From positions 1,550 through 65,549 of the forward strand of contig JAJBWD010000222.1 in assembly GCA_032907345.1 (NCBI GenBank): a stretch of 64,000 nt of DNA, given 5' to 3'. Positions 4,856 through 49,394 of this stretch are shown in pieces. The notes under the pieces were generated by a model, which searched no databases, was not told the DNA's origin, and worked only from the letters and a program-made list of their open reading frames with translations. This DNA comes from Bacillota bacterium. GTDB lineage: Bacteria > Bacillota > Clostridia > Clostridiales > Clostridiaceae. The translations under genes were made by a program, and so were the position numbers. How positions within the stretch are numbered: the first letter of the stretch is position 1; each line of letters begins with the position of its first letter.

Positions 4856-5794
4856 ATGAGAAAAAATGGAAAAGTAGGCGGAGTTACTATTGCTGCTATT
4901 TTGGTATTGGGGATTCTAGGTCTAATGTTGTTTACGACCAAGATTCCCGCAGGTTACGCAGGTATTGTTTATAATATGAATGGTGGAATTGAAGAGAACG
5001 TCCGCCATCAAGGTTGGTCAATTGTTTCTCCTACTAAAACAGTAACTAAATATACTATAGCAAGAGAACAGTCATATATGACAAAGGATAAGCGCGGAGA
5101 CTCTGAGGAAGATGAGAGTTTTGAGATTCCTACTAGAGAAGGCGCATCTCTTGAAGTAGACGTTGCTTTTGGTTATACTTTTGATATTAATCGTCTGCCT
5201 GATACTTTTAATAGATTTAGAGGACAAAGCGGTAAAGAGATTCTTGATAGTTTTATTAAACCTACTATGCAAGGTTGGATAAAGGAAGTTACTCCTCGTT
5301 ATGGTATGGTTGAAATTGTTAGTAAGCAAAGAGGAGAAGTTAATGCTGCTCTAACTGAAGAAATGCAGAAGAGATTTGATAAATATGGTATTATTATTGA
5401 TACTGTAACGTTGACCGATGTCCGCCCTGATGAAGATACCGATAAGGCTATTAGAAATAAGATTAAGGCACAAGAGGAACTTGAAAAAGCAAAGATAACT
5501 GCGGAAACTGATAAGGTGAACGCGGAACGTGATAAGGCGGTTGCGATTATTAACGCAGAAAAAGAGAAAGAAACTGCCGCAATTGAAGCGGAAAAGGCTA
5601 AGATTAAGGCGGATGGTGCTGCCGCCGCACGGGAGACTGAATCTAAGGCGGAAGCTGAAGCTATTAAGAGAATCTCTGGCGCGCTGACTAATGAATATAA
5701 TGAGTATATTCATAATAAACAGTGGAATGGTGCGGAACCGCAAATTGTTGGCGGAAGTGCAACTCCTATTGTTGATATGAGGAATGGACAATGA
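4856..5794 (+). CDS. SPFH/Band-7 (prohibitin/stomatin-like) membrane protein
   Basis: 312 aa. N-terminal TM, PAGYAGIVYN...SPFH-like core, then a long A/E/K coiled-coil tail. Confidence 0.75.
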   Translation: MRKNGKVGGVTIAAILVLGILGLMLFTTKIPAGYAGIVYNMNGGIEENVRHQGWSIVSPTKTVTKYTIAREQSYMTKDKRGDSEEDESFEIPTREGASLEVDVAFGYTFDINRLPDTFNRFRGQSGKEILDSFIKPTMQGWIKEVTPRYGMVEIVSKQRGEVNAALTEEMQKRFDKYGIIIDTVTLTDVRPDEDTDKAIRNKIKAQEELEKAKITAETDKVNAERDKAVAIINAEKEKETAAIEAEKAKIKADGAAAARETESKAEAEAIKRISGALTNEYNEYIHNKQWNGAEPQIVGGSATPIVDMRNGQ

Positions 5795-5928
5795 TTAGGA
5801 AGATTTTAAAGCGGATTCCTAAGAAGGCTAAGGTATGGCGGCCGGTGTATTGTTGCCCTAGTTGTGAAGCAATCTTGCGGGAGGGTGATACTTCCTGCAA
5901 GCATTGTAAGCAGAAGGTGAGAGTATGA
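5791..5928 (+). CDS. small Zn-ribbon protein (45 aa)
   Basis: ATGA overlap. CCPSC...CKHC. Confidence 0.45.
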   Translation: MIRKILKRIPKKAKVWRPVYCCPSCEAILREGDTSCKHCKQKVRV

Positions 5929-37985: not shown

Positions 37986-38448
37986 CTACATAAATAGCAA
38001 TGGTGACTTGATTTAATAGTGCGCATAAAAATCAAGAGAGTCCACCAAATCACGGCGGTCGGGAGAGTGAGACCATAGTGAACTACCTAGAGTGACAGGA
38101 GTCATGACCTGTGGAATTCAGGCTATAGTGAGAAAGGGAGCCTAAAAAATGGACTAAGCTATTTAATGTTTACTCTCGAAGAGAAACAGCAGACTCGCGT
38201 CCCTGTCACGGACGAGATAGTGGGGGCAGCACCCATCGGGAGTGTTAGGAAGTAGATTTACCTTCCGCCAATTGTAAATCTAAGCTGTTGATAAATAGCC
38301 GCTTTACTTTTTTGGGGTGTTACAGGAAAAAGTCCTTGTAGGTGCAGGTTCAACCTATCTCACAATTTTCGGGAGTAAAACGAAAAGAGGGAACGTGGTT
38401 TTCCCGTGTCTGGATGGCAAAAGCATTGGCAAAGCAAATCACTTATAT

Positions 38449-38480
38449 GGGGGGCTGGTGGAATTGGTAGACACCCTAAT
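38449..38480 (+). pseudogene. 5' half of a split type-II (Leu-like) tRNA
   Basis: GGGGGGC-TG-GTG-GAATTGGTAGA-CAC-C-CTAAT, then AT-rich insert. Complements the 3' half at 39112-39153. Confidence 0.4.
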
Positions 38481-38565: not shown

Positions 38566-39027
38566 ATGAGAAGAACAGACATTTTAGAAAGAAAAGAAGA
38601 TATATTAAAATGGATTGATTTACATCAATCTAAAGCCTATATGTGTAAGCAACTTCATTGTAAACCTGACACTTTAAATAGTTATTTGTAGAAAATGGGA
38701 ATTTCTTATACTGGAAATAAGGGAGGAAAAGGTATAAAAAATAGTCCTACTTATAAAACAGCTTAGGAATATATTAAACAAGATTATGTTAAATCTCATG
38801 TTTTAAAACAAAAACTAATTAGAGATGGTATAAAATCAAATAAATGTGAAATTTGTGGAATTTCTATTTGGCAAGGTGTGTAGTTACCTTTAGAACTTCA
38901 TCACAAAGATGGAAATCATTTTAATAATAATTTTGATAATTTACAGATTTTATGTCCAAATTGTCATTCTATACAATAGGGAAATTCTGGAGCAAATATA
39001 GGAAAATATACAAAAATAGCCGAGTGA
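38566..39027 (+). CDS. HNH homing-type endonuclease (153 aa), TAG-recoded
   Basis: CEICG...LELHHKDGNHFNNNFDNLQILCPNCH. 4 in-frame TAG, 3 of them upstream of the HNH core. The TGA 39025-27 overlaps the next tRNA. Confidence 0.75.
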
Positions 39028-39091: not shown

Positions 39092-39111
39092 TTCTATCTT
39101 GTTCTAATATA

Positions 39112-39153
39112 GTTAGTGCCCTGTGCGTGTGGGTTCGAGTCCCACGTCCCCTA
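39112..39153 (+). pseudogene. 3' half of the split type-II tRNA
   Basis: GTTAG (pairs with CTAAT), 12-nt variable arm, T arm GTGGG-TTCGAGT-CCCAC, then GTCCCCT-A (pairs with GGGGGGC using 2 G-U pairs). Confidence 0.4.
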
Positions 39154-39341
39154 CTTATCTTTATAGCAGGGTAGGAAAACATGCGTCCATAGCTAATTAA
39201 TTGATGTATACTAAATTTTTTAGAATCCTAACATAAAATATGTAAATATGACTTTAGATGCAGTGTCATACGTTATAAAGATAAAGATTTGCATTTTTAA
39301 AAAATTTTTATTATAATATTTATAGAAAGTGAAAGAAATAT

Positions 39342-39551: not shown

Positions 39552-39869
39552 TTTACTGAAAGTATTAATATAACCTTAGGCAATGATATTAATATAAGTA
39601 AGTTGACTGTTTGTCTGTCGGAAAGGGTGTTTTAGTAAAGAGTAAAAACATCAGCAAGGCTCCTAAAGCTAACCTGAACGGAAAATGGTAAGCGGTGTGG
39701 TAAAACCTTATAGACCAATACGGTAGATGCATATGCCGTATTTGATTTTTAAAAAATTTTTTGTTATAATATTTTTAGAAAGTGAAAGGCAGGAACAGCA
39801 AATTATAAACTTTCTTAACAAATCTTCCAAATTTGTAACCAGAATAAGTTAAACTGTCTTGATTAATAT

Positions 39870-40229: not shown

Positions 40230-40870
40230 TTGAATTATCAACAAAAGAACATTGACAATTGAATAATTTAGTTATATTTATGAAGCAACTCAGTGATAAA
40301 CGTCAATTCCATGACGCTGAGGTATTGGCTTTACGAATAACCAGAATAAGGAAGGATACTTTCTTAGGAGAAAAGATTTTATGCGGCAACGTATAAAACG
40401 CCAGGTCTAAAGAAATGGTTTAGTCAATAGCACTGGGGTAATCGCTCTTAAAGACACTGTTCCAATCGGCTCCATAATATAGGGTTCTTTAACGAGAGCA
40501 CTAATCCAAGTTAGGTGAAGCGTGGAAAACTTTGCAAACCTTGGAATTTCCATAAGGGGTTAATGCACTTGAAGCGGCGGAAGCCGTGTATAAGATTGGG
40601 TCAAGGTACGAGTAGGCTAAATGTGCGTAGACAAAAAGTTTGGATAACTTCTTATACAGGTTATAAAATTTTGCTGAAAGGTAGCTGAAAGTTAGAGGTA
40701 TACAAAATCCTCTACAAGATTTGTCTGTCTTGAACAGATGGGGCATATAGCGGTGAGGTCGCTCCTAATCGCTCAGGTATGTCTCCTTGGTGGTCGAATA
40801 TAAGAGAAGGTTATTACCAGCAACCCGAAGGGGTGTTATTCATAGATATAATTAAGTTATTCAATTGTTG
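40230..40870 (+). ncRNA. ~600-nt ORF-free region bracketed by a 27-nt inverted repeat; candidate large structured RNA
   Basis: CAATTGAATAATTTAGTTATATTTATG (about 40255) pairs with CATAGATATAATTAAGTTATTCAATTG (about 40842). There is no ORF in either code. It lies inside the tRNA array. Confidence 0.4.
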
Positions 40871-41930: not shown

Positions 41931-42073
41931 ATAGAAAGACATATACAGCAACTTCTTACTTTTGTAAGTTTACAGGTTCGAATCCTGTCACAAGCATTGT
42001 CGCTTATGTAGTCAAATGGTTAAGACAACTGTCTCGTAAACAGTCATTATTTACAAATTATATGTCTTGTTAT
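41931..42073 (+). ncRNA. circularly permuted tRNA-like RNA (T arm, closed acceptor hairpin, D arm, anticodon-like arm CGU) clamped by a 10-bp terminal stem
   Basis: AAGACATATA (41936-45) pairs with TATATGTCTT (42059-68). Inside are ACAGG-TTCGAAT-CCTGT, CACAAGC-ATTGTC-GCTTATG, TA, GTC-AAATGGTTAA-GAC, A and ACTGT-CTCGTAA-ACAGT. Confidence 0.55.
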
Positions 42074-42147
42074 GCTCAGATAGCTCTAATTGGGAGAGCG
42101 GAGGACTGAAGATCCTCGCGTTACTAGTTCAAGTCTAGTTCTGAGCA
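42074..42147 (+). tRNA. tRNA-Phe (GAA)
   Basis: Acceptor GCTCAGA/TCTGAGC; anticodon arm GAGGA-CTGAAGA-TCCTC; T arm ACTAG-TTCAAGT-CTAGT. Confidence 0.9.
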
Positions 42148-42153
42148 TTTTTA

Positions 42154-42239
42154 TCCTGGTGTAGACCAATAAGGAGGTGGGGTGGACTGTAAATCCATCT
42201 GCTTCGGCACCGAGTGGGTTCGATTCCCTCTACCAGGAC
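42154..42239 (+). tRNA. tRNA-Tyr (GUA), type II
   Basis: Acceptor TCCTGGT/ACCAGGA; anticodon arm GTGGA-CTGTAAA-TCCAT; long variable arm; T loop TTCGATT. Confidence 0.7.
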
Positions 42240-42457
42240 TAAGCGGGACGCCGCAAAAAGCCTTGAAGCAAAAAGTAAAGGTGTTTAACTTGATAAGGAG
42301 ACAGGATATAGTTTAAAGTAGCGATACAAGAAAACATTCTTATCCATACGCAATATTCTAGTCAGGGCTAGGCAGACGTAAAAGTTAAACGGTTAATTGA
42401 GAGAGGTTATTCAATGAAAGAAAAACGCGTTTCTTCCTTTCCTTTTAATCCTAATTT

Positions 42458-42531
42458 ACTACGATAATTCAGCAGGTTAGAATGCTTCTCTGATAAGGAA
42501 GTCGTCAGTGGTTCGAGTCCACTTCGTAGTA
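42458..42531 (+). tRNA. tRNA-Ile (GAU)
   Basis: Acceptor ACTACGA/TCGTAGT; anticodon arm CTTCT-CTGATAA-GGAAG; T arm AGTGG-TTCGAGT-CCACT. Confidence 0.85.
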
Positions 42532-42756
42532 TTCTATTGTCTTCTTACCATCTATACACAATAGAAAATTGGGAGAATATTATAGAAACGCGTCTATAAT
42601 ATGATAAAGGTATATACCTCTTTGCGGTAATGTGATTATACAAAGATACCCTGGAAACCGTGTTTTAGCAAATAAATGTGCGGGCGGCGGACCTAAAACG
42701 TCATTGGCAAGCAGGATTAAACTGCTACAAAGGGGGTAATCAGGCCTCTTAGTACT

Positions 42757-42832
42757 GGGCTGTGGGACTGCACGGGGTGGTCATCTGTCTTGCACACAGA
42801 AAATCAGGTGGGTTCAATTCCCACACGGTCCA
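42757..42832 (+). tRNA. tRNA-Ala (UGC)
   Basis: Acceptor GGGCTGT/ACGGTCC with G3-U70; anticodon arm TCTGT-CTTGCAC-ACAGA; T arm GTGGG-TTCAATT-CCCAC. Confidence 0.75.
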
Positions 42833-43027
42833 TTTATTCTATATCAATATACACGTGCGATATGGAAGACCCTCATGTTTGTCAGTTTCTCCGAGAAGTG
42901 AAAAGAAACTGTCTTTTCCCTTAATAAAAGGAGGATTATAATTATAATCCTCCTGATTACGACCAATAGGATTATTTATCTATAAAAAATTTAATTTTAA
43001 AAAGGATATTTTTTAATATCCTTTTTT

Positions 43028-43100
43028 GCACGGTTAACTCAGCTGGGAGAGTGCTATCCTTACAAGTTAGAAGTCATTGGTTCGAGTCCAATACCGTGCA
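43028..43100 (+). tRNA. tRNA-Val (UAC)
   Basis: Acceptor GCACGGT/ACCGTGC; anticodon arm CTATC-CTTACAA-GTTAG; T arm ATTGG-TTCGAGT-CCAAT. Confidence 0.8.
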
Positions 43101-43136
43101 TTCCATCTTAAAAATATATTTTAAAGGAGAGAAAAT

Positions 43137-43679
43137 ATGACTGATGTAAGATTAAAACTTTCACCCCCATGGATTACGGCAATTCATAAATTTTAGGCAT
43201 TATTTGATGGTGATCCGCAAATTGCTTGTAATGTAAAAGTAGATTCAGGTGAAGAACCTATTCTTGCTCTTGCTTGTAACAATGGAGATAAAGTAGCAGC
43301 TTTACTTCAAATTCTTCCTACTGAAATAATTTTTGGTAATATTCCATTACATATTTTAGTAGATGGTCTTCCAAGCAATAGAGCATTTAAAACAAAAAAA
43401 GAATTATTTGAAACTGCTTTTTCAGGAAATCCTGCTTTTGCTTATGCAGTATGTCCAGTAGAAGAAGGTGCTACATGGTTTGATATGACCTATGTTGTAT
43501 TTAAAAACTGCGTTGTTCAATTTTTTAATGATAATTTAAATGATTGTCATGGTGTAATTAGTACCCTATATGAAGATATTGCTAGAGATATTTTAACTGG
43601 AGAAGCTGTTAACGGAGTATATTTTAATACTGATATTGAAGTTGGTAAATTAGGAAAACCATTAGGTGAATGGCCATAA
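43137..43679 (+). CDS. hypothetical protein (180 aa) with one in-frame TAG (43194-96)
   Basis: RBS AAAGGAG + ATG 43137. In frame with track ORF 43485..43679. Confidence 0.6.
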
Positions 43680-43689
43680 TTAATATAAA

Positions 43690-43806
43690 GATGCGGTGGC
43701 GGAATATGTAGACGCTTAGGAGTAAGGGCAGTGAAAACGAAAAGGCAAACGGGTGTGAGTAACGATTGCTTCTGTCCATGTAAGGTGTAAATCCTTACCC
43801 GCATCT
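43690..43806 (+). ncRNA. 117-nt tRNA-like RNA: acceptor + Leu-like D arm, tetraloop hairpin CTTA-GGAG-TAAG, long inserted helix, atypical T arm
   Basis: Acceptor GATGCGG/CCGCATC; D arm GCGG-AATATGTAGA-CGC; helix GGGCAG...CTGTCC; T arm GTAAGG-TGTAAAT-CCTTAC. Confidence 0.4.
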
Positions 43807-43815
43807 AAAAATTTT

Positions 43816-43844
43816 TTGATTTTTTAAAAAAATTATTATATAAT
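43816..43844 (+). promoter_or_regulatory. promoter of the transcription unit that starts with the CUA tRNA
   Basis: TTGATT 43816-21, 17-bp spacer, TATAAT 43839-44. A leader with the AAGACAGA/TCTGTCTT clamp spans 43866-43940. Confidence 0.6.
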
Positions 43845-43942
43845 ATATTTATAAGATGAAAGAAAGACAGAAACAGCAATTTATTTTAATTTTTGTATTA
43901 GACTGTTAATCTAATTTAAGCAATTTTTAATCTGTCTTGGTA

Positions 43943-44016
43943 TGGCTCGGTGGTCAAACGGTTTAAGACGCTGGTCTCTAAAACCAGAAATCGGAGTTCG
44001 ATTCTCCGGCGGGCTA
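43943..44016 (+). tRNA. suppressor tRNA, anticodon CUA (reads UAG); Gln-like
   Basis: Perfect anticodon arm CTGGT-CTCTAAA-ACCAG. D arm GTC-AAACGGTTTAA-GAC nearly matches tRNA-Gln(UUG) at 46045. T arm CGGAG-TTCGATT-CTCCG. Acceptor TGGCTCG/CGGGCTA (U1-A72). Confidence 0.8.
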
Positions 44017-44025
44017 TCCCAATTT

Positions 44026-44113
44026 GCGGATGTGGCAGAGAGGTTTAATGCGGTACCCTGCTAAGGTATTGATCCTACATTAGGGTCCGGTGGTTCGAAT
44101 CCACTCATCCGCG
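44026..44113 (+). tRNA. tRNA-Ser (GCU), type II
   Basis: Acceptor GCGGATG/CATCCGC; anticodon arm GTACC-CTGCTAA-GGTAT; T arm GGTGG-TTCGAAT-CCACT. Confidence 0.8.
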
Positions 44114-44314
44114 CTAAGGCTTATACGGCAATTTTATTTTTAATGGGTTTACAAAGTATAACATTTTAAGAAAAGTCGGCAATTGGAGAGCCGTGTAATT
44201 AAAGCCGTGTCTCATGTAAAGTTCTCTTTTATTTTGAAAGTTTTCTATTTCTTCCTTAATAAGGGTGGCTTCCCGAAAAATAAGTAAAGATGAAAACTTT
44301 TTAAGCCTTGATAT

Positions 44315-44397
44315 GGTGCGGACCTGGCTGGATGAAGACGCAGTCTTGAAAACTGTCGGGCGTAACTGCCTTGGGGGTTCGAGTCCCTCCCGCATCG
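44315..44397 (+). tRNA. tRNA-Ser (UGA), type II
   Basis: Acceptor GGTGCGG/CCGCATC; anticodon arm GCAGT-CTTGAAA-ACTGT; T arm GGGGG-TTCGAGT-CCCTC. Confidence 0.8.
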
Positions 44398-44442
44398 CTA
44401 ATTGTTAAATGTTTCGTTAATCAAGTTTCAAAGGAGTTTATC

Positions 44443-44742
44443 ATGTGTAGAACTTTAGCAGAAAAAAGACACAATAGCGTAACAAAAGCAATTAGAAAAA
44501 AAAATATTTCAGAACAGGTTTACCATTTCTCATGGTATAATAACTTGCATCAATATAGTAAAAATAAAGTTCATTGCTCTTGTCCTCTTTGTAGCGGGAA
44601 AACTAAAAAACATAGACCTGCTTTTGGTGCAGAAAAAGGTAGACGAGGTGGTAAACATTGGTATCATTCAGATGTAAAACGCCTTGTTGCAATGGCAGAA
44701 AGGGAAAGAGAATATGAGTTAGCAATCAGTAATGCAAGTTAA
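44443..44742 (+). CDS. hypothetical basic protein (99 aa)
   Basis: RBS AAAGGAG + ATG 44443. The upstream part of track ORF 44371.. overlaps the tRNA. Confidence 0.6.
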   Translation: MCRTLAEKRHNSVTKAIRKKNISEQVYHFSWYNNLHQYSKNKVHCSCPLCSGKTKKHRPAFGAEKGRRGGKHWYHSDVKRLVAMAEREREYELAISNAS

Positions 44743-44869
44743 TTAGTAGAAAACTGATTTTTCAGTTGTTTTAAACAAAGAATATCTTGAAGCTGTTAAT
44801 AATGGATTTAAGGGAACATTTGATGAATATTGCGCTTATAGAGATTATATAAAAGCGTAACAAAAAAAC

Positions 44870-44983
44870 AGGCACATACAGCAATTTATACTTCCAAGTA
44901 TATGTTATCGGTTCAAGTCCGATTTTATCCGCCAAGATAGGATAGATAGATCAATAGGTAGATCAATACTTATTTGTGTGCCT
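44870..44983 (+). ncRNA. Y-RNA/YrlA-like permuted tRNA mimic: ends pair, anticodon-stem equivalent opens to the termini, acceptor stem closed by a loop
   Basis: AGGCACA (44870-76) pairs with TGTGCCT (44977-83). AGTAT (44897-901) pairs with ATACT (44966-70). Variable ATGTT; T arm ATCGG-TTCAAGT-CCGAT; TTTATCC-GCCAAGATA-GGATAGA; TA; D arm GATC-AATAGGTA-GATC; A. Confidence 0.6.
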
Positions 44984-44990
44984 TGTATAT

Positions 44991-45064
44991 TGGGGTGTAA
45001 TTCAGTTGGCTAGAATGCGTGATTTGGGATCACGATGCCGTGAGTTCGAGTCTCACCACTCCAA
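44991..45064 (+). tRNA. tRNA-Pro (UGG)
   Basis: Acceptor TGGGGTG/CACTCCA; anticodon arm CGTGA-TTTGGGA-TCACG; T arm GTGAG-TTCGAGT-CTCAC. Confidence 0.8.
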
Positions 45065-45066
45065 CT

Positions 45067-45140
45067 GTGGTTATAGGACAATTTGGTAGTCCAGCGGTTT
45101 GTGGTACCGCTTGTTACGGGTTCAAGTCCCGTTAGCCACC
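45067..45140 (+). tRNA. tRNA-His (GUG)
   Basis: Acceptor GTGGTTA/TAGCCAC; anticodon arm GCGGT-TTGTGGT-ACCGC; T arm ACGGG-TTCAAGT-CCCGT. Confidence 0.85.
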
Positions 45141-45178
45141 TTTCGTCAATAAAATATTTTAAAAAGAGAGGAAAAAAA

Positions 45179-45559
45179 ATGAAATTTTATAGTGAAGTTC
45201 TGGATGAATTTTTTGATTCAGAAAAGGAATGCATTGAAGCTGAATTTGACAGAAAAAAGAAACAAGAGGAAGCTGAAGAGAAGCGTCGTAAAGAGTTGCA
45301 GGAACGCATGGAAAAACATAAGTTTCATGCAGAAAAGGCTCTTGCAAAACAAAATCTTGAGAAAAAGATTGAAGCCCTTAACAAGGAAATTCTTGAATAT
45401 GTTAAAACATATGAGAAGGAAACTCCTTGGTTGGCAGATTTAGTAGAAGCAATCTTTGAACAGCCTTCAGAAAAAAAGACAAAAGAAGAGAAGAGACCTG
45501 CGGCAACTCCTGTTACCCGCAATGAATTTGAAAAAATTTTGGAAGGTTTCCTTAACTAA
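45179..45559 (+). CDS. hypothetical K/E-rich coiled-coil protein (126 aa)
   Basis: RBS GAGAGGAAA + ATG 45179. The track ORF N-terminus overlaps tRNA-His. Confidence 0.6.
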   Translation: MKFYSEVLDEFFDSEKECIEAEFDRKKKQEEAEEKRRKELQERMEKHKFHAEKALAKQNLEKKIEALNKEILEYVKTYEKETPWLADLVEAIFEQPSEKKTKEEKRPAATPVTRNEFEKILEGFLN

Positions 45560-45571
45560 AGGAGTTTGTTA

Positions 45572-45760
45572 ATGTCTAAGTGGAAAACAATAGGCACTAA
45601 TGCATTAGAATCTTTCAATCCTATTAATGATATTGAGGATAAAAAGGAACGAGATGAAGCCAGGCGGAAAGCACGTTTCTGCATGTTCCAGACAACTCAT
45701 GCGCTTCGAAAACAGATTCTAATTAAGCCTAAATACATCGAAGTAAAATCGGCCGATTAA
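45572..45760 (+). CDS. hypothetical protein (62 aa)
   Basis: RBS AAGGAG + ATG 45572. Confidence 0.55.
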   Translation: MSKWKTIGTNALESFNPINDIEDKKERDEARRKARFCMFQTTHALRKQILIKPKYIEVKSAD

Positions 45761-45806
45761 TTTTTAAAAGGGCATGAAATTTATACGTTTCATATCCCTT
45801 TCTTTT

Positions 45807-45881
45807 GCACGGATGGCGCAGTCTGGTTACCGCAACGGTCTGCAAAACCGTTATTCGTGGGTTCAAATCCCACTCTGTGCT
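45807..45881 (+). tRNA. tRNA-Cys (GCA)
   Basis: Acceptor GCACGGA/TCTGTGC; anticodon arm ACGGT-CTGCAAA-ACCGT; T arm GTGGG-TTCAAAT-CCCAC. Confidence 0.85.
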
Positions 45882-46044
45882 TATTTGAAAAAAATAAAAA
45901 TTTTTATTATAATATATATAGAAAAGAGACTTACAGCAAAATATAATAAATAATAAATAACAAACATAATCTAAGGGGAGGATGTAAAATTGCGGATTTT
46001 AAATTATTAGTTCGAGTCCGTTTGTGAAAAAGCCTCTTGAATAC

Positions 46045-46116
46045 AGGGCCGTAGTCAAACGGTAAGACACAGGATTTTGATTCCTGCATTTGTGGGTTCG
46101 AACCCCGCCGGCCCTG
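46045..46116 (+). tRNA. tRNA-Gln (UUG)
   Basis: Acceptor AGGGCCG/CGGCCCT; D arm GTC-AAACGGTAA-GAC; anticodon arm CAGGA-TTTTGAT-TCCTG; T arm GTGGG-TTCGAAC-CCCGC. Confidence 0.85.
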
Positions 46117-46125
46117 CTAAAAAAT

Positions 46126-46209
46126 GTCAGTATAGCTTAATTGGTAAAGCGGCTCCCCCCAAGGAGTGTAAGGCCTAAGACGATATAGGTTCGAACCCTA
46201 TTGCTGGCT
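46126..46209 (+). ncRNA. 84-nt type-II-like tRNA with irregular anticodon arm (G-CTCC/CCCCAA/GGAG-T, 6-nt loop)
   Basis: Acceptor GTCAGTA/TGCTGGC; D arm GCTT-AATTGGTAA-AGC; 17-nt variable region; T arm ATAGG-TTCGAAC-CCTAT. Confidence 0.4.
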
Positions 46210-46255
46210 TATTGTATTAATAAATTAAAAAGGAGAATAAATATGCTTTATGCAG

Positions 46256-46328
46256 ATGGCTCTAGTGTTAGCGGATAGCACGGTGGTCTCCAAAACCACA
46301 AGGCAGAGTTCGAATCTCTGGGGTCGTG
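46256..46328 (+). tRNA. tRNA-Trp (CCA)
   Basis: Anticodon arm GTGGT-CTCCAAA-ACCAC; T arm CAGAG-TTCGAAT-CTCTG; weak acceptor ATGGCTC/GGGTCGT (3 G-U pairs). Confidence 0.7.
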
Positions 46329-46465
46329 TTTAATACAAAAGTTAATTAATGTATTGTATTAACATTTATCAAAAAAGTTGTCCAGGGATAGTATTCATTA
46401 GTGTGATACGTCGGGTTGGGGCGGAGTAGCTAACCGTGAACAGACAAAAAATATGATAAATGTTC

Positions 46466-46537
46466 GCGCTGTGGTGTATTATGGTAACATACCTCCTTGC
46501 ATACGGGGGAGCTTTACGTTCGATTCGTAACGGCGCA
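46466..46537 (+). tRNA. tRNA-like with apparent 8-nt anticodon loop UUGCAUAC (CAU/GCA?)
   Basis: Acceptor GCGCTGT/ACGGCGC; stem CCTCC/GGGGG around TTGCATAC; T arm (T)TACG-TTCGATT-CGTA(A). Confidence 0.45.
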
Positions 46538-46542
46538 ATTAT

Positions 46543-46614
46543 ATCCCATTAGTCTAATGGATAGAATATCTGGCTACGAACCAGAAGATATAAGTTCGAT
46601 TCTTATATGGGATA
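46543..46614 (+). tRNA. tRNA-Arg (ACG)
   Basis: Acceptor ATCCCAT/ATGGGAT; anticodon arm TCTGG-CTACGAA-CCAGA; T arm ATAAG-TTCGATT-CTTAT. Confidence 0.85.
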
Positions 46615-46710
46615 TTTAACATAAGGTAATTCTGAAAATCTGAAGCGAACCTCCGTGCAAGTACCATCACTCAGAAGGTTGGGAAAAGAAGTAGCAAAGA
46701 GCCTTATTAT

Positions 46711-46782
46711 GCTCCTGTAGTTTAATGGATAGAATACGGGACTTCTAATCCCATGATGAGGGTTCGATTCCCTCTGGGAGTG
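46711..46782 (+). tRNA. tRNA-Arg (UCU)
   Basis: Acceptor GCTCCTG/TGGGAGT; anticodon arm CGGGA-CTTCTAA-TCCCA; T arm GAGGG-TTCGATT-CCCTC. Confidence 0.75.
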
Positions 46783-46805
46783 CTAACAAAAGAAAGGAAA
46801 TAATT

Positions 46806-47576
46806 ATGAGAGACCCAAGGTATGCATTAACTGAACATTTTCAAAAAATTATTATAGATTATCCTAATTATAGATTTTTAGGAATTTTTCTTTACGGTTC
46901 TCAAAATTATGGTCTTGCAACAGAAGATTCTGATGTTGACAGTATTGCTATTGTTATTCCAACAATAGAAGATATTATCCTCAGAAAACCTATTTGTAAA
47001 GAAATTATTTTTGAAAACGGTGAACATTGTAATATAAAAGATATTCGAGAAGTTGTTAAAGAATGGAAGAAACAAAGTCTTCAGGCTCTTGAAATTCTTT
47101 TTACAGATTATTTTATAATTAGACCCAAATATGTTTCTTATTGGAATAACTTTCTTAATATTAGAAATGATATTGCTCATTATGATGTAAAAAGAACTTT
47201 TAAGTCTATTTCAGGACAAGCGAAACAAACTTATCTTCGAAATCCTTCAGATAGAAAACAAATCGCCAATACTTATAGACTATATTATTTTTTAAGGTCT
47301 TATTTGATGGGTTGTTCTTATAAAACTTGTCTTACATCAAATAGTATTGCAACATTAGGAGTTAAGACAGGAGAAATTCCTCTTAATGATTCTCTTAATA
47401 AAGATATTGCAGATATTGTTTTTAATCGTTTTCCAAAACTTGAAGATACATCTTGGAAAGTTAGAAATGTTCCTGAAATAGGACAAAAGATAGATGAATA
47501 TCTTGTAAAATTAATTAAAGGAGTAGAATATGAAGAGGATGTCAAAACTATTCTTGATAAAATGGAAAATATTTAA
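46806..47576 (+). CDS. Pol-beta-superfamily nucleotidyltransferase, RlaP/'Nuc-transf'-like
   Basis: IFLYGSQNYGLATEDSDVDSIAIV (GS-x10-D.D motif); 256 aa. Confidence 0.65.
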   Translation: MRDPRYALTEHFQKIIIDYPNYRFLGIFLYGSQNYGLATEDSDVDSIAIVIPTIEDIILRKPICKEIIFENGEHCNIKDIREVVKEWKKQSLQALEILFTDYFIIRPKYVSYWNNFLNIRNDIAHYDVKRTFKSISGQAKQTYLRNPSDRKQIANTYRLYYFLRSYLMGCSYKTCLTSNSIATLGVKTGEIPLNDSLNKDIADIVFNRFPKLEDTSWKVRNVPEIGQKIDEYLVKLIKGVEYEEDVKTILDKMENI

Positions 47577-47614
47577 GTAGATAGAAAAACAAAGGATAAA
47601 ATTTATTTTTTAAA

Positions 47615-47860
47615 ATGAAAGATTTAGATAAAGAATTAGAAAAAGCAACAACTCTTATTGAAAAAACAAAAATTCTTAGAGAATATACTAATTGTTCCAT
47701 ATCTGACGCTGTAAGTGCAATGAAATATAAAAATACTCATTCTAAATGCACAGCATGTGGTTATTTAAGAGCAATTATTGGGGATACAAGTCAATTTTCT
47801 AATAAACAATTTTATAAACGAGTTGAAAAATTTTCAGACTTAGATAATGATATACTTTGA
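47615..47860 (+). CDS. small protein with EF-Ts-N/UBA-like motif; paralog of 19235..19438
   Basis: ILREYTNCSISDAVSAMKY. Shares the C-terminus FYKRVEKFSDLDNDIL with the paralog. Confidence 0.5.
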   Translation: MKDLDKELEKATTLIEKTKILREYTNCSISDAVSAMKYKNTHSKCTACGYLRAIIGDTSQFSNKQFYKRVEKFSDLDNDIL

Positions 47861-47885
47861 CAAAAGTAAAGGAGATAAAAGGATT

Positions 47886-49394
47886 ATGAATACATTTATG
47901 AATCAGCTTTCAAACGATTTTAATTACAAGAGAACAGAGAATGGAGCACTCGCTCACCGTACTACTAACTCAGCGGTTTATGATATGTTTGCTATGGGCG
48001 CTGCATATCGTTCACGTTCAGATGAAGATTGTATTCTTCTTTTCAAAAACGCCTTCGAAGAGGACTCAGTTCTTGCGCTGAAGTGTCTATTCTATATTCG
48101 TGACTGCCGCGGCGGTCAGGGTGAACGTAGATTCTTCCGTACATGCTTCCGCTGGTTGGCAGAGAACAAGCCTGTGCGCGCCCGTAATTTGATTGAGTAT
48201 CTTCCTGAGTATGGTAGATATGATGACCTGTTTGAACTTTTCGGCACTCCTGTTGAAAAGAATGTAATGGCTCTTATTGAAAAGCAGCTTCGTGAGGATA
48301 TGGCGTGCGAGAAGAATGGTATTAGCCTTATCGCTAAGTGGCTTCCTTCAGAAAATGCTTCAAATGCAGATACGATTGCAAGAGCAAGAAAGATTAGACG
48401 TTCACTTGGAATCACCTCCAGACAGTATCGTCAGATGCTTTCAAAACTAAGAGCTAAGATTAATGTTCTTGAAAGACTGATGTCCGCCAATAGATGGGAC
48501 AAGATTGAGTTTGATAAGATTCCTTCTCGCGCAGGTATTATTTATCGTAATGCTTTTGCAAGACGTGATATTATCGCTAAGAAGTATGAGTCTTTTGCAA
48601 AGGATAAGAATACAAAGGTTAATGCTTCTGTACTTTATCCTTACGAAGTAGTAGCTAAGGCTGTTAAGACTTCAGGATGGTCTTACCGTTTTGATACTCT
48701 TAGTGAAACTGAGCGTGCTATGATTAATAAGTATTGGGATAATCTTCCTGATTATCTTAATGGTAAGGATTGTAGCATGATGTGTGTTGTAGATACTTCT
48801 GGTTCTATGACTGGTGTTGGTGCGGCAGCACCTATTAATGTAGCAATTAGTCTAGGTCTGTATTGTGCAGAACGTATTGGTGGACCTTTTAAGAATCACT
48901 ATATCAGTTTTGCTTCACAGCCTCAGCTAATTAAGACCGTAGGAATTGATTTTGTAGATAAGGCTCGCCGTATCTATCAGACAAATCTTTGCGATAATAC
49001 TAATTTGGAAGCTGTTTTTGATTTACTTCTAAAGACAGCAACCAAGAAGGGTGTTAAGCAGGACGATATTCCTAAGACCATTGTAGTTATTTCTGATATG
49101 GAAATTGACAGTGGTACTGGTGGATGGTATCGAGAAAGTAGATGGACAAAGCATTCTGCTTCTACAGAGGTGGAGAAGATTCGTCAAAAGTGGGCAGCAT
49201 ATGGACTTCAGCTTCCTAAGTTAATCTATTGGAATGTAGATGCCCGCCAGAATACAATCTTGGATGCAGGCCCTAATATATCCTTTGTAAGCGGTATGTC
49301 CCCTACTATTTTCAAGCAGGTTCTTACTGGTAAGACTGGTTATGATTTGATGCTTGAAGCTATTAATAGTGAAAGATATGCCGTAATCAGATAA
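47886..49394 (+). CDS. DUF2828-family protein with C-terminal vWA domain (possible TROVE/Ro60-like RNA-binding protein)
   Basis: RBS AAAGGAG + ATG 47886. RTENGALAHRTT..VYDMF...LFYIRDCRGGQGER. MIDAS motif VVDTSGSMTG and ...VVISDME. Confidence 0.6.
   Translation: MNTFMNQLSNDFNYKRTENGALAHRTTNSAVYDMFAMGAAYRSRSDEDCILLFKNAFEEDSVLALKCLFYIRDCRGGQGERRFFRTCFRWLAENKPVRARNLIEYLPEYGRYDDLFELFGTPVEKNVMALIEKQLREDMACEKNGISLIAKWLPSENASNADTIARARKIRRSLGITSRQYRQMLSKLRAKINVLERLMSANRWDKIEFDKIPSRAGIIYRNAFARRDIIAKKYESFAKDKNTKVNASVLYPYEVVAKAVKTSGWSYRFDTLSETERAMINKYWDNLPDYLNGKDCSMMCVVDTSGSMTGVGAAAPINVAISLGLYCAERIGGPFKNHYISFASQPQLIKTVGIDFVDKARRIYQTNLCDNTNLEAVFDLLLKTATKKGVKQDDIPKTIVVISDMEIDSGTGGWYRESRWTKHSASTEVEKIRQKWAAYGLQLPKLIYWNVDARQNTILDAGPNISFVSGMSPTIFKQVLTGKTGYDLMLEAINSERYAVIR

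Follow-up and report, generated by a model that had tools for sequence, protein, structure and literature searches.

Handle-bearing tRNA-like RNAs and a DUF2828-vWA protein in a phage tRNA array: a candidate Ro60-like ribonucleoprotein with its own Y-like RNA family

The locus and the question

Are the RNAs with permuted tRNA parts that lie in a phage tRNA array upstream of the gene of a DUF2828-vWA protein the partners of this protein in a ribonucleoprotein of the Ro60–Y RNA type? Particles of this type have been found in animals, in ~5% of bacteria and in a small number of phages. The locus that raises the question is a stretch of 64,000 nucleotides from a Bacillota bacterium (GenBank assembly GCA_032907345.1, contig JAJBWD010000222.1, positions 1,550 to 65,549 of the forward strand; hereafter the window, to whose numbering all coordinates refer unless a related locus is named), in which a sequence-only reading had singled out two acceptor-closed, permuted tRNA mimics resembling the bacterial Y RNA YrlA (E1 and E2 below) and had suspected the nearby DUF2828 protein of being TROVE-like. 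Both RNAs are real and have all the sequence features that had been listed for them, but they belong to a set of five RNAs united by a common terminal “handle”, and this handle accompanies the DUF2828 gene in distantly related phages. The protein is predicted to have a Ro60-like fold, and we consider it probable that the two components form a Ro60-like ribonucleoprotein with its own family of Y-like RNAs, acting in the quality control or repair of tRNA or other RNA.

Five RNAs with a common handle

The window holds five handle RNAs (E0 to E4), all on the + strand within the tRNA array. The handle is composed of a terminal helix of 7–10 bp, 1–3 nt, the invariant heptamer ACAGCAA and a G after the 3′ strand of the helix. 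ACAGCAA occurs 18 times in the window, compared with 8.3 expected occurrences, and for each of the five + strand copies in the tRNA array (at 39795, 41945, 43873, 44878 and 45933) the 3′ strand of the handle is located 60–125 nt downstream and is followed by G. The parts of E2 are the following:

44870–44985, + strand: handle RNA E2, with a YrlA-like permuted tRNA core (delimited as 44870–44983 in the sequence-only reading)
44870–44876 / 44977–44983, + strand: terminal helix AGGCACA/TGTGCCT, 7 bp
44878–44884, + strand: heptamer ACAGCAA
44888–44893, + strand: arm of an alternative hairpin
44897–44901 (within 44896–44901) / 44966–44970, + strand: anticodon-stem equivalent AGTAT/ATACT, 5 bp
Between the anticodon-stem equivalent and the T arm: variable stretch of 5 nt
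44907–44923, + strand: T arm ATCGG-TTCAAGT-CCGAT
44924–44930 / 44940–44946, + strand: acceptor TTTATCC/GGATAGA, 7 bp, with a closing loop of 9 nt
44949–44964, + strand: after TA, D arm GATC-AATAGGTA-GATC, 4 bp

The order of these modules (T arm, closed acceptor and D arm, flanked by the anticodon-stem equivalent) is that of YrlA; by inspection, the anticodon stem has no anticodon loop and runs straight into the 7-bp helix with ACAGCAA, and the closing loop of the acceptor opens with G-CCA (44931–44934). Compared with shuffled sequences the fold has z = −4.5, and none of 200 shuffles equals it. The Rfam model of YrlA (RF02553) aligns with E2 over model positions 1–114 (cmscan), T arm, closed acceptor and D arm all falling into register; the score of 29.4 bits (E = 0.0022 in 5.1 kb) stays below the gathering score, which is 69. 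Since a control, the tandem tRNA-Pro/tRNA-His pair, i.e., two adjacent true tRNAs, attains 22.4 bits with the same model, Rfam alone does not settle membership in YrlA.

For the strand forming the anticodon-stem equivalent (44888–44901 / 44966–44971), pairing is also possible with a copy of its partner located upstream, in a local hairpin whose loop has 3–5 nt; both partners covary across relatives, which suggests two mutually exclusive folds. A hairpin upstream of the T arm recurs in most members of the family, each of these hairpins being individually weak given the AT-rich sequence.

E1 is a full tRNA cloverleaf permuted at the variable region:

41936–42069, + strand: handle RNA E1, the other element of the sequence-only reading
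41936–41945 / 42059–42068, + strand: terminal helix AAGACATATA/TATATGTCTT, 10 bp
41945–41951, + strand: heptamer ACAGCAA
41955–41968, + strand: local hairpin
41972–41988, + strand: T arm
41989–41995 / 42002–42008, + strand: closed acceptor CACAAGC/GCTTATG, with one A·C mismatch, then TA
42011–42026, + strand: D arm
42028–42044, + strand: anticodon-like arm ACTGT-CTCGTAA-ACAGT, loop CUCGUAA

Taken alone, E1 differs little from its shuffles (z = −1.6 only) and scores 19.9 bits with the Rfam YrlA model, and its region 42002–42066 gives a partial Rfam tRNA match of 33.1 bits; the covariance model derived from E2-type sequences (R1, described below) recognizes it with 49.9 bits. Its 3′ end lies one base ahead of tRNA-Phe. 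The E1-type members found in related loci have all four arms with a canonical 7-nt anticodon loop resembling those of real tRNAs, and their anticodon stems covary across several lineages (ACUGU/ACAGU, GAUUGA/UCAAUU, GAAUGA/UCAUUU, AUCGU/ACGAU and GCAGU/ACUGU). The likeness of the two RNAs to YrlA thus stands as far as the architecture is concerned, and not as far as the Rfam score and the YrlA motif GNCGAAN0-1G are; the latter is replaced by ACAGCAA in all five RNAs of the window, three of which had not been recognized:

39786–39861, + strand: handle RNA E0, terminal helix AAGGCAG/CTGTCTT, ACAGCAA at 39795–39801, 3′ G
39818–39836, + strand: anticodon-stem-loop mimic of E0, ACAAAT-CTTCCAA-ATTTGT, loop CUUCCAA
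43864–43939, + strand: handle RNA E3, terminal helix AAGACAGA/TCTGTCTT, ACAGCAA at 43873–43879
43897–43915, + strand: anticodon-stem-loop mimic of E3, ATTAGA-CTGTTAA-TCTAAT, with the tRNA-Asn-type loop CUGUUAA
45926–46039, + strand: handle RNA E4, terminal helix GAGAC(T)/(A)GCCTCT with one mismatch, ACAGCAA at 45933–45939

The cores of E0 and E3 are barely more than a 6-bp stem with a 7-nt loop of the anticodon type; the R1 model recognizes E3 with 32.1 bits and E0 weakly, with 22.5 bits, and a copy of E3 with 95% identity is present in a related locus (L004). The core of E4 is tRNA-like and in normal order (D arm, a 5-bp arm with a 7-nt loop, a degenerate T arm and a 3-bp acceptor) and matches the Rfam tRNA model at 28.4 bits over model positions 5–66 (45964–46025). 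The 5′ ends of these three RNAs are 10–20 nt past promoters of the type TTGnnn-N17-TATAAT: E0 lies between a TTGATT-N17-TATAAT promoter at 39742 and tRNA-Met, E3 between the promoter at 43816 and the suppressor tRNA-CUA, and E4 between the promoter at 45885 and tRNA-Gln; indeed, all five handle RNAs stop shortly ahead of a tRNA. At permissive thresholds no other Rfam family covers E0, E3 or E4, nor does any match the corresponding gaps of the Listeria phage, Felix O1 and Lewan (see below). Self-cleaving ribozymes (hammerhead, twister, pistol, hatchet and HDV-like) were considered for the conserved ends and rejected, there being neither an Rfam match nor a core motif of any of them.

Relatives and covariation

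The relatives analysed are 66 IMG/VR loci encoding DUF2828 relatives, covered up to 10 kb on each side of the gene, in which BLAST detects homologues of E1, E2 and E3. The covariance model R1, built from eight E2-type sequences, yields 173 matches at E ≤ 1 in 67 sources, all of them in the orientation of the DUF2828 gene. Standard pairs make up 95.9% of the cells in the 25 best matches, both sides vary in 26 of 29 pairs, and compensatory changes occur in all five helices, the terminal helix included; the covariation score is 0.81, compared with 0.21 for column shuffles (0 of 500 reach 0.81) and 0.09–0.17 when the partners are slid. The alignment of the 25 sequences having been fitted to the model, the pairing figures are somewhat inflated, but the distance from the slid controls remains very wide. 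Co-variation with relatives, by which the sequence-only reading had proposed to judge its two RNAs, is present.

Of the 72 unique members from all loci, 65 retain an acceptor helix right after the T arm, with six or more of its 7 pairs formed. The acceptor 3′ strand is directly followed by N-CCA in 16 members (E2 included; ~1 expected by chance), while 54 have neither CCA nor CC at this site, ~30 of these having an acceptor loop of 3–7 nt. What the handle encloses is in fact variable. It also surrounds non-tRNA cores of 50–100 nt, and a mimic of the anticodon loop (a CUNNNAA loop on a stem of 5 bp or more) occurs in 24 of 173 short members, where shuffles predict 0.44; the loop is CUGUUAA (Asn type) or CUUUUAA (Lys type) in 18 of the 24. 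A subclass of only 57–65 nt consists of just the handle and a 5-bp stem with CUGUUAA or CUUUUAA, i.e., the anticodon loops of tRNA-Asn(GUU) and tRNA-Lys(UUU):

L075, region of 5026: RNA of the 57–65 nt subclass
L068, 6093: RNA of the same subclass
L155, 2793: RNA of the same subclass
L148, 4077: RNA of the same subclass
L119, 3427: RNA of the same subclass

Furthermore, a normal-order, non-permuted tRNA-like core is found inside the same handle in four related loci (L008 9231–9342, L052 9217–9328 and the equivalents in L009 and L010), so that the handle is a portable module.

Linkage of the handle RNAs to the DUF2828 gene

In the window, E4, E2 and E1 precede the DUF2828 gene by 1.85, 2.9 and 5.8 kb and share its strand. 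A helix finder searching for CAGCAA preceded by a helix strand with a partner of at least 7 bp 20–240 nt downstream returns 184 elements on the gene strand and 23 on the opposite strand of the 66 loci and the window; pairing being demanded by the finder, the evidential value of this result resides in the strand bias and the location only. The exact 16-mer of a handle, AAGACACATACAGCAA, is found in at least 120 IMG/VR chunks; among the matches listed, 43 chunks contain the DUF2828 gene and all 51 motif copies in these are co-oriented with it, most of them 80–3300 nt upstream of the gene or just after it.

DUF2828-vWA proteins are also encoded in 705 records of cultured phages, Listeria P100-type phages among them. 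Nine lineages, whose proteins have 30–41% identity with that of the window, were surveyed, and in seven of them 2–6 handle RNAs adjoin the gene on its own strand:

Felix O1: four handle RNAs adjoining the DUF2828 gene
Mycobacterium phage Lewan: three in tandem, directly after the gene and before a terminator
Listeria phage LP-083-2: three, directly before the gene
Campylobacter phage CPX: two adjoining the gene, filling the gap just before it
Staphylococcus phage S-CoN_Ph4: three in tandem, directly after the gene
Enterococcus phage PEf771: three adjoining the gene
Bacillus phage MrDarsey: five adjoining the gene

In the 28 elements tabulated, A-CAGCAA is invariant and stands in the place of the YrlA motif in every case, while the sequence of the helix varies and covaries; the 3′ G is the next base in 26 of the 28, the last base in one, and in E2 of the window it is found one base further on. 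Since no tRNA gene is adjacent to the handle RNAs of Lewan and S-CoN_Ph4, the handle tracks the protein gene and not the tRNA genes.

A control is offered by another Mycobacterium phage, McGee, whose gp233 is a canonical Ro60 (170.5 bits with Pfam TROVE and 183.3 bits with vWA_Ro60). Just upstream of gp233 Rfam YrlA finds a match of 36 bits, and the motifs GGCCGAGAG and GGCCGAAGG occur near the starts of two RNAs, whereas the handle model has no match in 22 kb of this phage. The pattern is reversed in Lewan, which has the DUF2828 protein, a handle-model match of 39.5 bits and no Rfam YrlA match. Thus, in phages of the same host the two protein families pair with two types of handle, a contrast that is the strongest argument for regarding the handle as the recognition element of the protein.

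In S-CoN_Ph4 (L192 5532–5739) short coding sequences of “hypothetical proteins” (5519–5608 and 5738–5866) overlap the handle RNAs, and in McGee (L196 240–317) the annotated gp231/gp232 overlie the YrlA match; these short genes are probably mis-annotations, and tiny “hypothetical proteins” as well as odd tRNAs in the vicinity of DUF2828 genes merit re-inspection. Aeromonas phage Aeh1 (L190 7920–8320) has long tRNA-like elements ~2.5 kb downstream of its DUF2828 gene, one of which is annotated as a tRNA-Val of 122 nt and another of which has two T arms; no ACAGCAA handle is seen in them.

The DUF2828-vWA protein

47886–49394, + strand: gene of the DUF2828 + DUF7788 (vWA) protein, 502 aa, with a full metal ion-dependent adhesion site (MIDAS) and the motif DTSGSM

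The protein is as the sequence-only reading had described it, the one alternative being an upstream ATG at 47847 that would extend it to 515 aa. Pfam recognizes DUF2828 (102.9 bits) and DUF7788 (123.2 bits) and, below threshold, VWA_2 and DUF2570; the protein also matches PHROG 850, “RNA-binding protein” (E = 3e-124). The family comprises 7781 protein clusters in our protein search, and the MIDAS residues D303, S305, S307, T372 and D404 are invariant in 109 diverse members.

The structure predicted by AlphaFold2 (pLDDT 70, pTM 0.49) has an all-helical N-terminal two-thirds and an α/β C-domain. When this model is compared with the PDB by Foldseek, the nine best matches are all Ro60/Rsr proteins (from D. 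radiodurans, Thermus phage phiLo, Xenopus and man), aligned over 500–565 columns with E = 1.5e-6 to 1.5e-3, phiRo60 of phiLo (9l5y) being the second-best; generic vWA proteins align over ~200 columns with E ≥ 5e-3. At the level of sequence profiles, hhalign with a 40-sequence Ro60 profile aligns the whole vWA domain with a probability of 68.5% (E = 4.6e-5). The suspicion of a TROVE-like protein is supported by the identity of the best structural matches, whereas the profiles align the vWA domain only and the TM-scores are low (see below); the N-domain would be TROVE-like at the level of the predicted fold only. In BFVD the model matches DUF2828-type proteins of giant viruses (Pithovirus, Marseillevirus, Mimiviridae and Cafeteria roenbergensis virus) with TM up to 0.55, and the record of Aeh1 notes a similarity of its DUF2828-type protein to a hypothetical protein of Arabidopsis.

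The likeness of the protein to Ro60 is not new, since depositors have annotated homologues as “Ro-like RNA binding protein” (see also PMC13148394); LeBron gp53 is a member of the DUF2828-vWA family. The gene abuts tRNA arrays in Felix O1, CPX, MrDarsey and the Listeria phage; in the last of these, genes of RtcB, an RNA ligase and phosphoesterases lie downstream of it, in Lewan a band-7 gene lies two genes upstream, and LeBron also encodes an RNA ligase and a polynucleotide kinase (PMC13148394). Such a context fits RNA repair and would be compatible with a role of the protein therein.

Comparison with known systems

The concept of a phage Ro60 with tRNA-like Y RNAs, considered undescribed in the sequence-only reading, is established: 22 phages with both were reported by Chen et al. 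2014 (PMC4201824), and Thermus phage phiLo has phiRo60 with Yrl1 and Yrl2 (PMC12135203; PDB 9KOP, 9L5Y), for which RNA binding and a complex with PNPase have been shown experimentally (PMC12135203). What is new is the DUF2828 branch with its own RNA family. The handle RNAs are undescribed in Rfam 15 and in the searchable literature, where mentions of DUF2828 concern neither phages nor RNA and “Ro-like RNA binding protein” occurs only in genome announcements and one overexpression screen; DUF2828 may have been recognized as TROVE-like before.

The handle RNAs share with YrlA and its Ro60 locus (PMC4201824; 10.1101/312249) the pairing of the ends into a helix, the order of T arm, closed acceptor and D arm with an anticodon-stem equivalent leading to the (here, predicted) protein-binding helix, a position within a few kb and on the same strand of the gene of a protein consisting of a (predicted) ring plus vWA, and the frequent occurrence of two or more RNAs per locus. 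They differ in the 5′ motif after the helix, which is ACAGCAA and not the GNCGAAN0-1G that has been proposed to be the Ro60 contact near the 5′ end of YrlA (PMC4201824), in their scores with the Rfam model (29.4 bits for E2 and 19.9 for E1, against a threshold of 69), in having as partner a DUF2828/DUF7788 and not a TROVE/vWA_Ro60 protein, in numbering up to five or six copies per genome, in replacing in many cases the tRNA core with an anticodon-stem-loop mimic or another short core, and in being embedded in phage tRNA arrays. Similarly, phiLo also combines a phage-encoded Ro60-fold protein (the fold being predicted in our case) with phage Y-like RNAs just upstream of the gene, but phiRo60 is a canonical TROVE protein whose RNAs have the CGAA motif. 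The lack of GNCGAA and the sub-threshold Rfam scores of the RNAs, together with the lack of a TROVE signature in the protein, therefore argue for a sister system with its own protein family and handle, and our results suggest that Ro/Y-RNA systems have a second branch, far more widespread, whose RNA family is recognizable by a simple handle.

The YrlA of M. smegmatis is cleaved by RNase P in the closed acceptor and receives CCA (PMC4201824). The 7-bp acceptor that makes it a substrate of this enzyme is also present in E2-type RNAs, and N-CCA is encoded at the matching site in the 16 of 72 members mentioned above; unlike in M. smegmatis, the CCA is encoded rather than added, and most members are devoid of it. 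By analogy, those E2-type RNAs that combine a 7-bp acceptor with an encoded CCA are likely cut by RNase P, which would expose the CCA. Circularly permuted tRNA genes are known from Cyanidioschyzon merolae and some archaea (10.1101/312249); compared with these, the handle RNAs lack the bulge-helix-bulge (BHB) splice motif, those of the E2 type lack an anticodon loop, the terminal region is a conserved handle found also on non-tRNA cores, and no maturation pathway is known in bacteria.

A proposed Ro60-like particle and the alternatives

In the particle that we propose, the protein would be the DUF2828-vWA product (47886–49394) and its RNA partners the handle RNAs E0 to E4, transcribed within the tRNA array from the strand of the gene. 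The handle, i.e., the closed end helix, ACAGCAA and the 3′ G, would be the binding site of the protein, a role corresponding to that of the GNCGAA-containing helix for canonical Ro60. The variable module between the strands of the handle copies tRNA or parts of it: a sealed elbow and acceptor in E2, a cloverleaf opened at the variable region in E1, a normal-order tRNA-like core in E4 and an anticodon stem-loop in E0 and E3. By analogy with Ro60–Y RNA particles, whose RNA module has been proposed to be a tether or a gate (PMC4201824, PMC12135203), the module may tether the predicted ring-shaped protein to tRNA-binding enzymes or gate its cavity, and the particle would act in tRNA or RNA quality control or repair during infection. 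The core of the sequence-only reading, namely that permuted tRNA mimics with a closed acceptor go together with a Ro60-like DUF2828-vWA protein, is favored by the architecture of the RNAs, the Foldseek matches and the co-travel of the two components in distant phages. Binding of the handle by the protein, the partners recruited and a role against tRNA-targeting defences can now be addressed in tractable model phages.

Several observations weigh against the proposal. On the side of the protein, neither Pfam TROVE (PF05731) nor vWA_Ro60 (PF25045) matches the product of the window; the structural model is of moderate quality and its TM to Ro60 only 0.34–0.40; hhalign leaves the N-domain unaligned both with one canonical Ro60 and with the 40-sequence profile, the latter being so shallow (Neff 2.8) that the negative is a weak one; and searches of PDB-chain sequences with the single sequence and two profiles give no Ro60 match, the sole trace being an insignificant match at the MIDAS region of phiLo Ro60. 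On the side of the RNAs, E1 and E2 remain below the Rfam YrlA threshold and lack GNCGAA, and E0, E3 and E4 of the window, each placed immediately between a promoter and a tRNA, could also be leaders or processing elements. As to the linkage, co-orientation is partly expected in strand-biased blocks of phage genes; 77 of the 120 motif chunks listed have no DUF2828 gene in the short stretch stored and are uninformative either way; and the T4-like phages Aeh1 and phi-Grn1 have the protein with no handle RNA within 4 kb. Finally, no RNA ligase is found among the ten larger proteins of the window that were scanned.

A bolder version of the same particle, possible but doubtful in our judgement, is that one Ro60-like protein is loaded through the ACAGCAA handle with interchangeable RNA adapters displaying parts of tRNA, which could be whole elbows, CCA-bearing acceptors or anticodon loops (Asn, Lys, Ile, Tyr and others), to intercept host defences directed at tRNA such as anticodon nucleases or to deliver damaged tRNAs to repair enzymes; in its boldest form, E1-type members would be cut in the acceptor loop and used as two-piece tRNAs.

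The RNAs could instead serve as decoys or as bait for tRNA-attacking or tRNA-reading enzymes of the host, e.g., anticodon nucleases, displaying tRNA elbows or anticodon loops so as to absorb or sense the attack, with the Ro-like protein being at most their stabilizer. The 24 short members with a CUNNNAA loop speak for it, as do the covarying anticodon arms with real-looking loops of the E1 type; tRNA-Lys and tRNA-Asn, to which 18 of the 24 loops correspond, are classic targets of anticodon nucleases (PrrC/RloC, colicin E5). We nevertheless regard this explanation as unlikely, because no nuclease or defence gene is linked to these RNAs in the locus, the largest tRNA-like class (E2 type) has no anticodon loop at all, and the invariance of the handle and its linkage to the protein gene are left unexplained; acting as a decoy may be a sub-function of the Ro60-like particle rather than a true rival to it.

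Another possibility, and quite an unlikely one, is that the handle is a leader, processing or stability element of phage tRNA operons, its 5′–3′ clamp shielding the leader and presenting the downstream tRNA to RNase P, and that it is found near DUF2828 genes merely by sharing the tRNA region as a parking place. The start of E0, E3 and E4 10–20 nt past promoters and their stop a few bases ahead of a tRNA, the end of E1 one base before tRNA-Phe and the position of many relatives inside tRNA arrays are what would be expected of such an element. On the other hand, the three tandem handle RNAs that follow the DUF2828 gene in Lewan and S-CoN_Ph4 have no adjacent tRNA, those of Lewan being at the terminator, and the handle RNAs of the Listeria and Campylobacter phages occupy the gap just before the gene; furthermore, a leader needs neither a covarying tRNA-like core nor a heptamer invariant across phages of Actinobacteria, Firmicutes and Proteobacteria.

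That the RNAs are genuine circularly permuted or split tRNA genes, matured to working tRNAs by an RNase P cut within the acceptor loop together with trimming of the 3′ end or addition of CCA, with the handle helix becoming a long variable arm or being removed, is very improbable. The 3′ half ahead of the 5′ half, the 7-bp acceptor, the N-CCA of 16 out of 72 members (~1 expected), the four arms and canonical 7-nt anticodon loop of the E1 type and the cutting by RNase P and the addition of CCA undergone by M. smegmatis YrlA (PMC4201824) would all agree with it, but an anticodon loop is missing from E2-type RNAs, CCA and CC are both absent at this site from 54 of 72 members, ~30 of which have only a 3–7 nt acceptor loop, the same handle encloses non-tRNA cores of 50–100 nt, there is neither a BHB motif nor a known splicing endonuclease/ligase route in bacteria (10.1101/312249), and the window already holds ordinary tRNAs for most amino acids.

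Decayed or rearranged, functionless tRNA pseudogenes (e.g., the remains of tandem tRNAs) deserve hardly any credence and can be set aside for practical purposes in view of the covariation, that of the anticodon arms included: their location in the array, the partial tRNA matches (33.1 bits at 42002–42066, 28.4 bits at 45964–46025) and the imitation of YrlA by tandem tRNA-Pro/tRNA-His at 22.4 bits would suit them, but compensatory changes affect all five helices of the relatives, architecture and handle are kept where the partner proteins share ~30–40% identity, every covariance-model match lies on one strand, and the relatives are too deeply diverged to stem from a recent duplication under neutral drift.

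Neighbouring genes and other features of the array

46806–47576, + strand: Pol-beta-fold nucleotidyltransferase, 256 aa, motif G31-S32-x10-D43-V-D45
47615–47860, + strand: small open reading frame, 81 aa, of no recognizable family

The first of these genes had been taken for an RlaP-like nucleotidyltransferase with a GS-x10-DxD motif. The motif is there, and its catalytic residues are invariant in 46 homologues, though it is generic to the superfamily; the assignment to RlaP is less secure, since Pfam RlaP (PF10127) matches residues 29–58 only, at 15.3 bits (cut-off 23), with NTP_transf_2 and Polbeta scoring about equally, and RlaP is matched weakly (E ≤ 1e-3) by 9 of the 46 homologues, compared with 11 and 10 for the two generic families. 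The protein matches PHROG 388 (E = 4e-16), has no sequence match in the PDB and gives only noise in NCBIfam; its AlphaFold2 model (pLDDT 93) retrieves generic two-domain nucleotidyltransferases with Foldseek, the best resemblance being to the kanamycin nucleotidyltransferase ANT(4′) and HalB (TM 0.40–0.44), in a PDB set devoid of RlaP. A homologue is present, at variable positions, in 39 of the 66 related loci. RlaP proteins extend damaged 3′ ends of RNA by one or two nucleotides (PMC12776372), an activity that would fit the system, if the putative membership of this enzyme in RlaP holds. The small protein had been described as UBA/EF-Ts-N-like, a description that finds no match in Pfam, PHROG or NCBIfam; among the related loci it is detectably conserved only in L003 and L004.

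A full-length ROOL RNA lies inside the region of tRNAs and handle RNAs (40265–40855, + strand; 280 bits, E = 4e-63), and a ROOL-like match of 87 bits (threshold 99) precedes the handle RNAs and the DUF2828 gene by 640 nt in Listeria phage LP-083-2 (L189 6471–7022). The promoter-like repeat TTGnnTTTTTAAAAAATTTTTnnTATAAT is present in about nine near-identical copies (35691, 36972, 37432, 39289, 39742, 40868, 41412, 43816 and 45885), by which, to judge from their sequence, the tRNA/ncRNA region would be split into many short transcription units. Another promoter-proximal leader at 35725–35842, just before tRNA-Ile, also has its ends clamped in a helix (GATAAAGATAAA/TTTATCTTTAT); ACAGCAA is absent from it, and TGAGCACC is duplicated in it. 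Three tRNAs predicted by ARAGORN have irregular anticodon loops, namely 36053–36124 (“tctg”), 46126–46209 (“cc”) and 46464–46539 (“gcat”), with Rfam tRNA scores of 48.9, 43.1 and 35.6 bits, respectively.

In the phage of the window TAG is apparently a sense codon: in-frame TAGs occur in many long open reading frames, and the array encodes a tRNA with anticodon CUA:

30523–32271: open reading frame with eight in-frame TAGs
29689–30510: open reading frame with in-frame TAGs
38566–39027: open reading frame with four in-frame TAGs
43137–43679: open reading frame with in-frame TAGs
43943–44019: tRNA with anticodon CUA, in the array

The third of these frames lies in the tRNA array, has an HNH-type motif (HHKDGNH...CPNCH) and is flanked by tRNA-like fragments at 38440–38480 and 39100–39160; it may encode a homing endonuclease.

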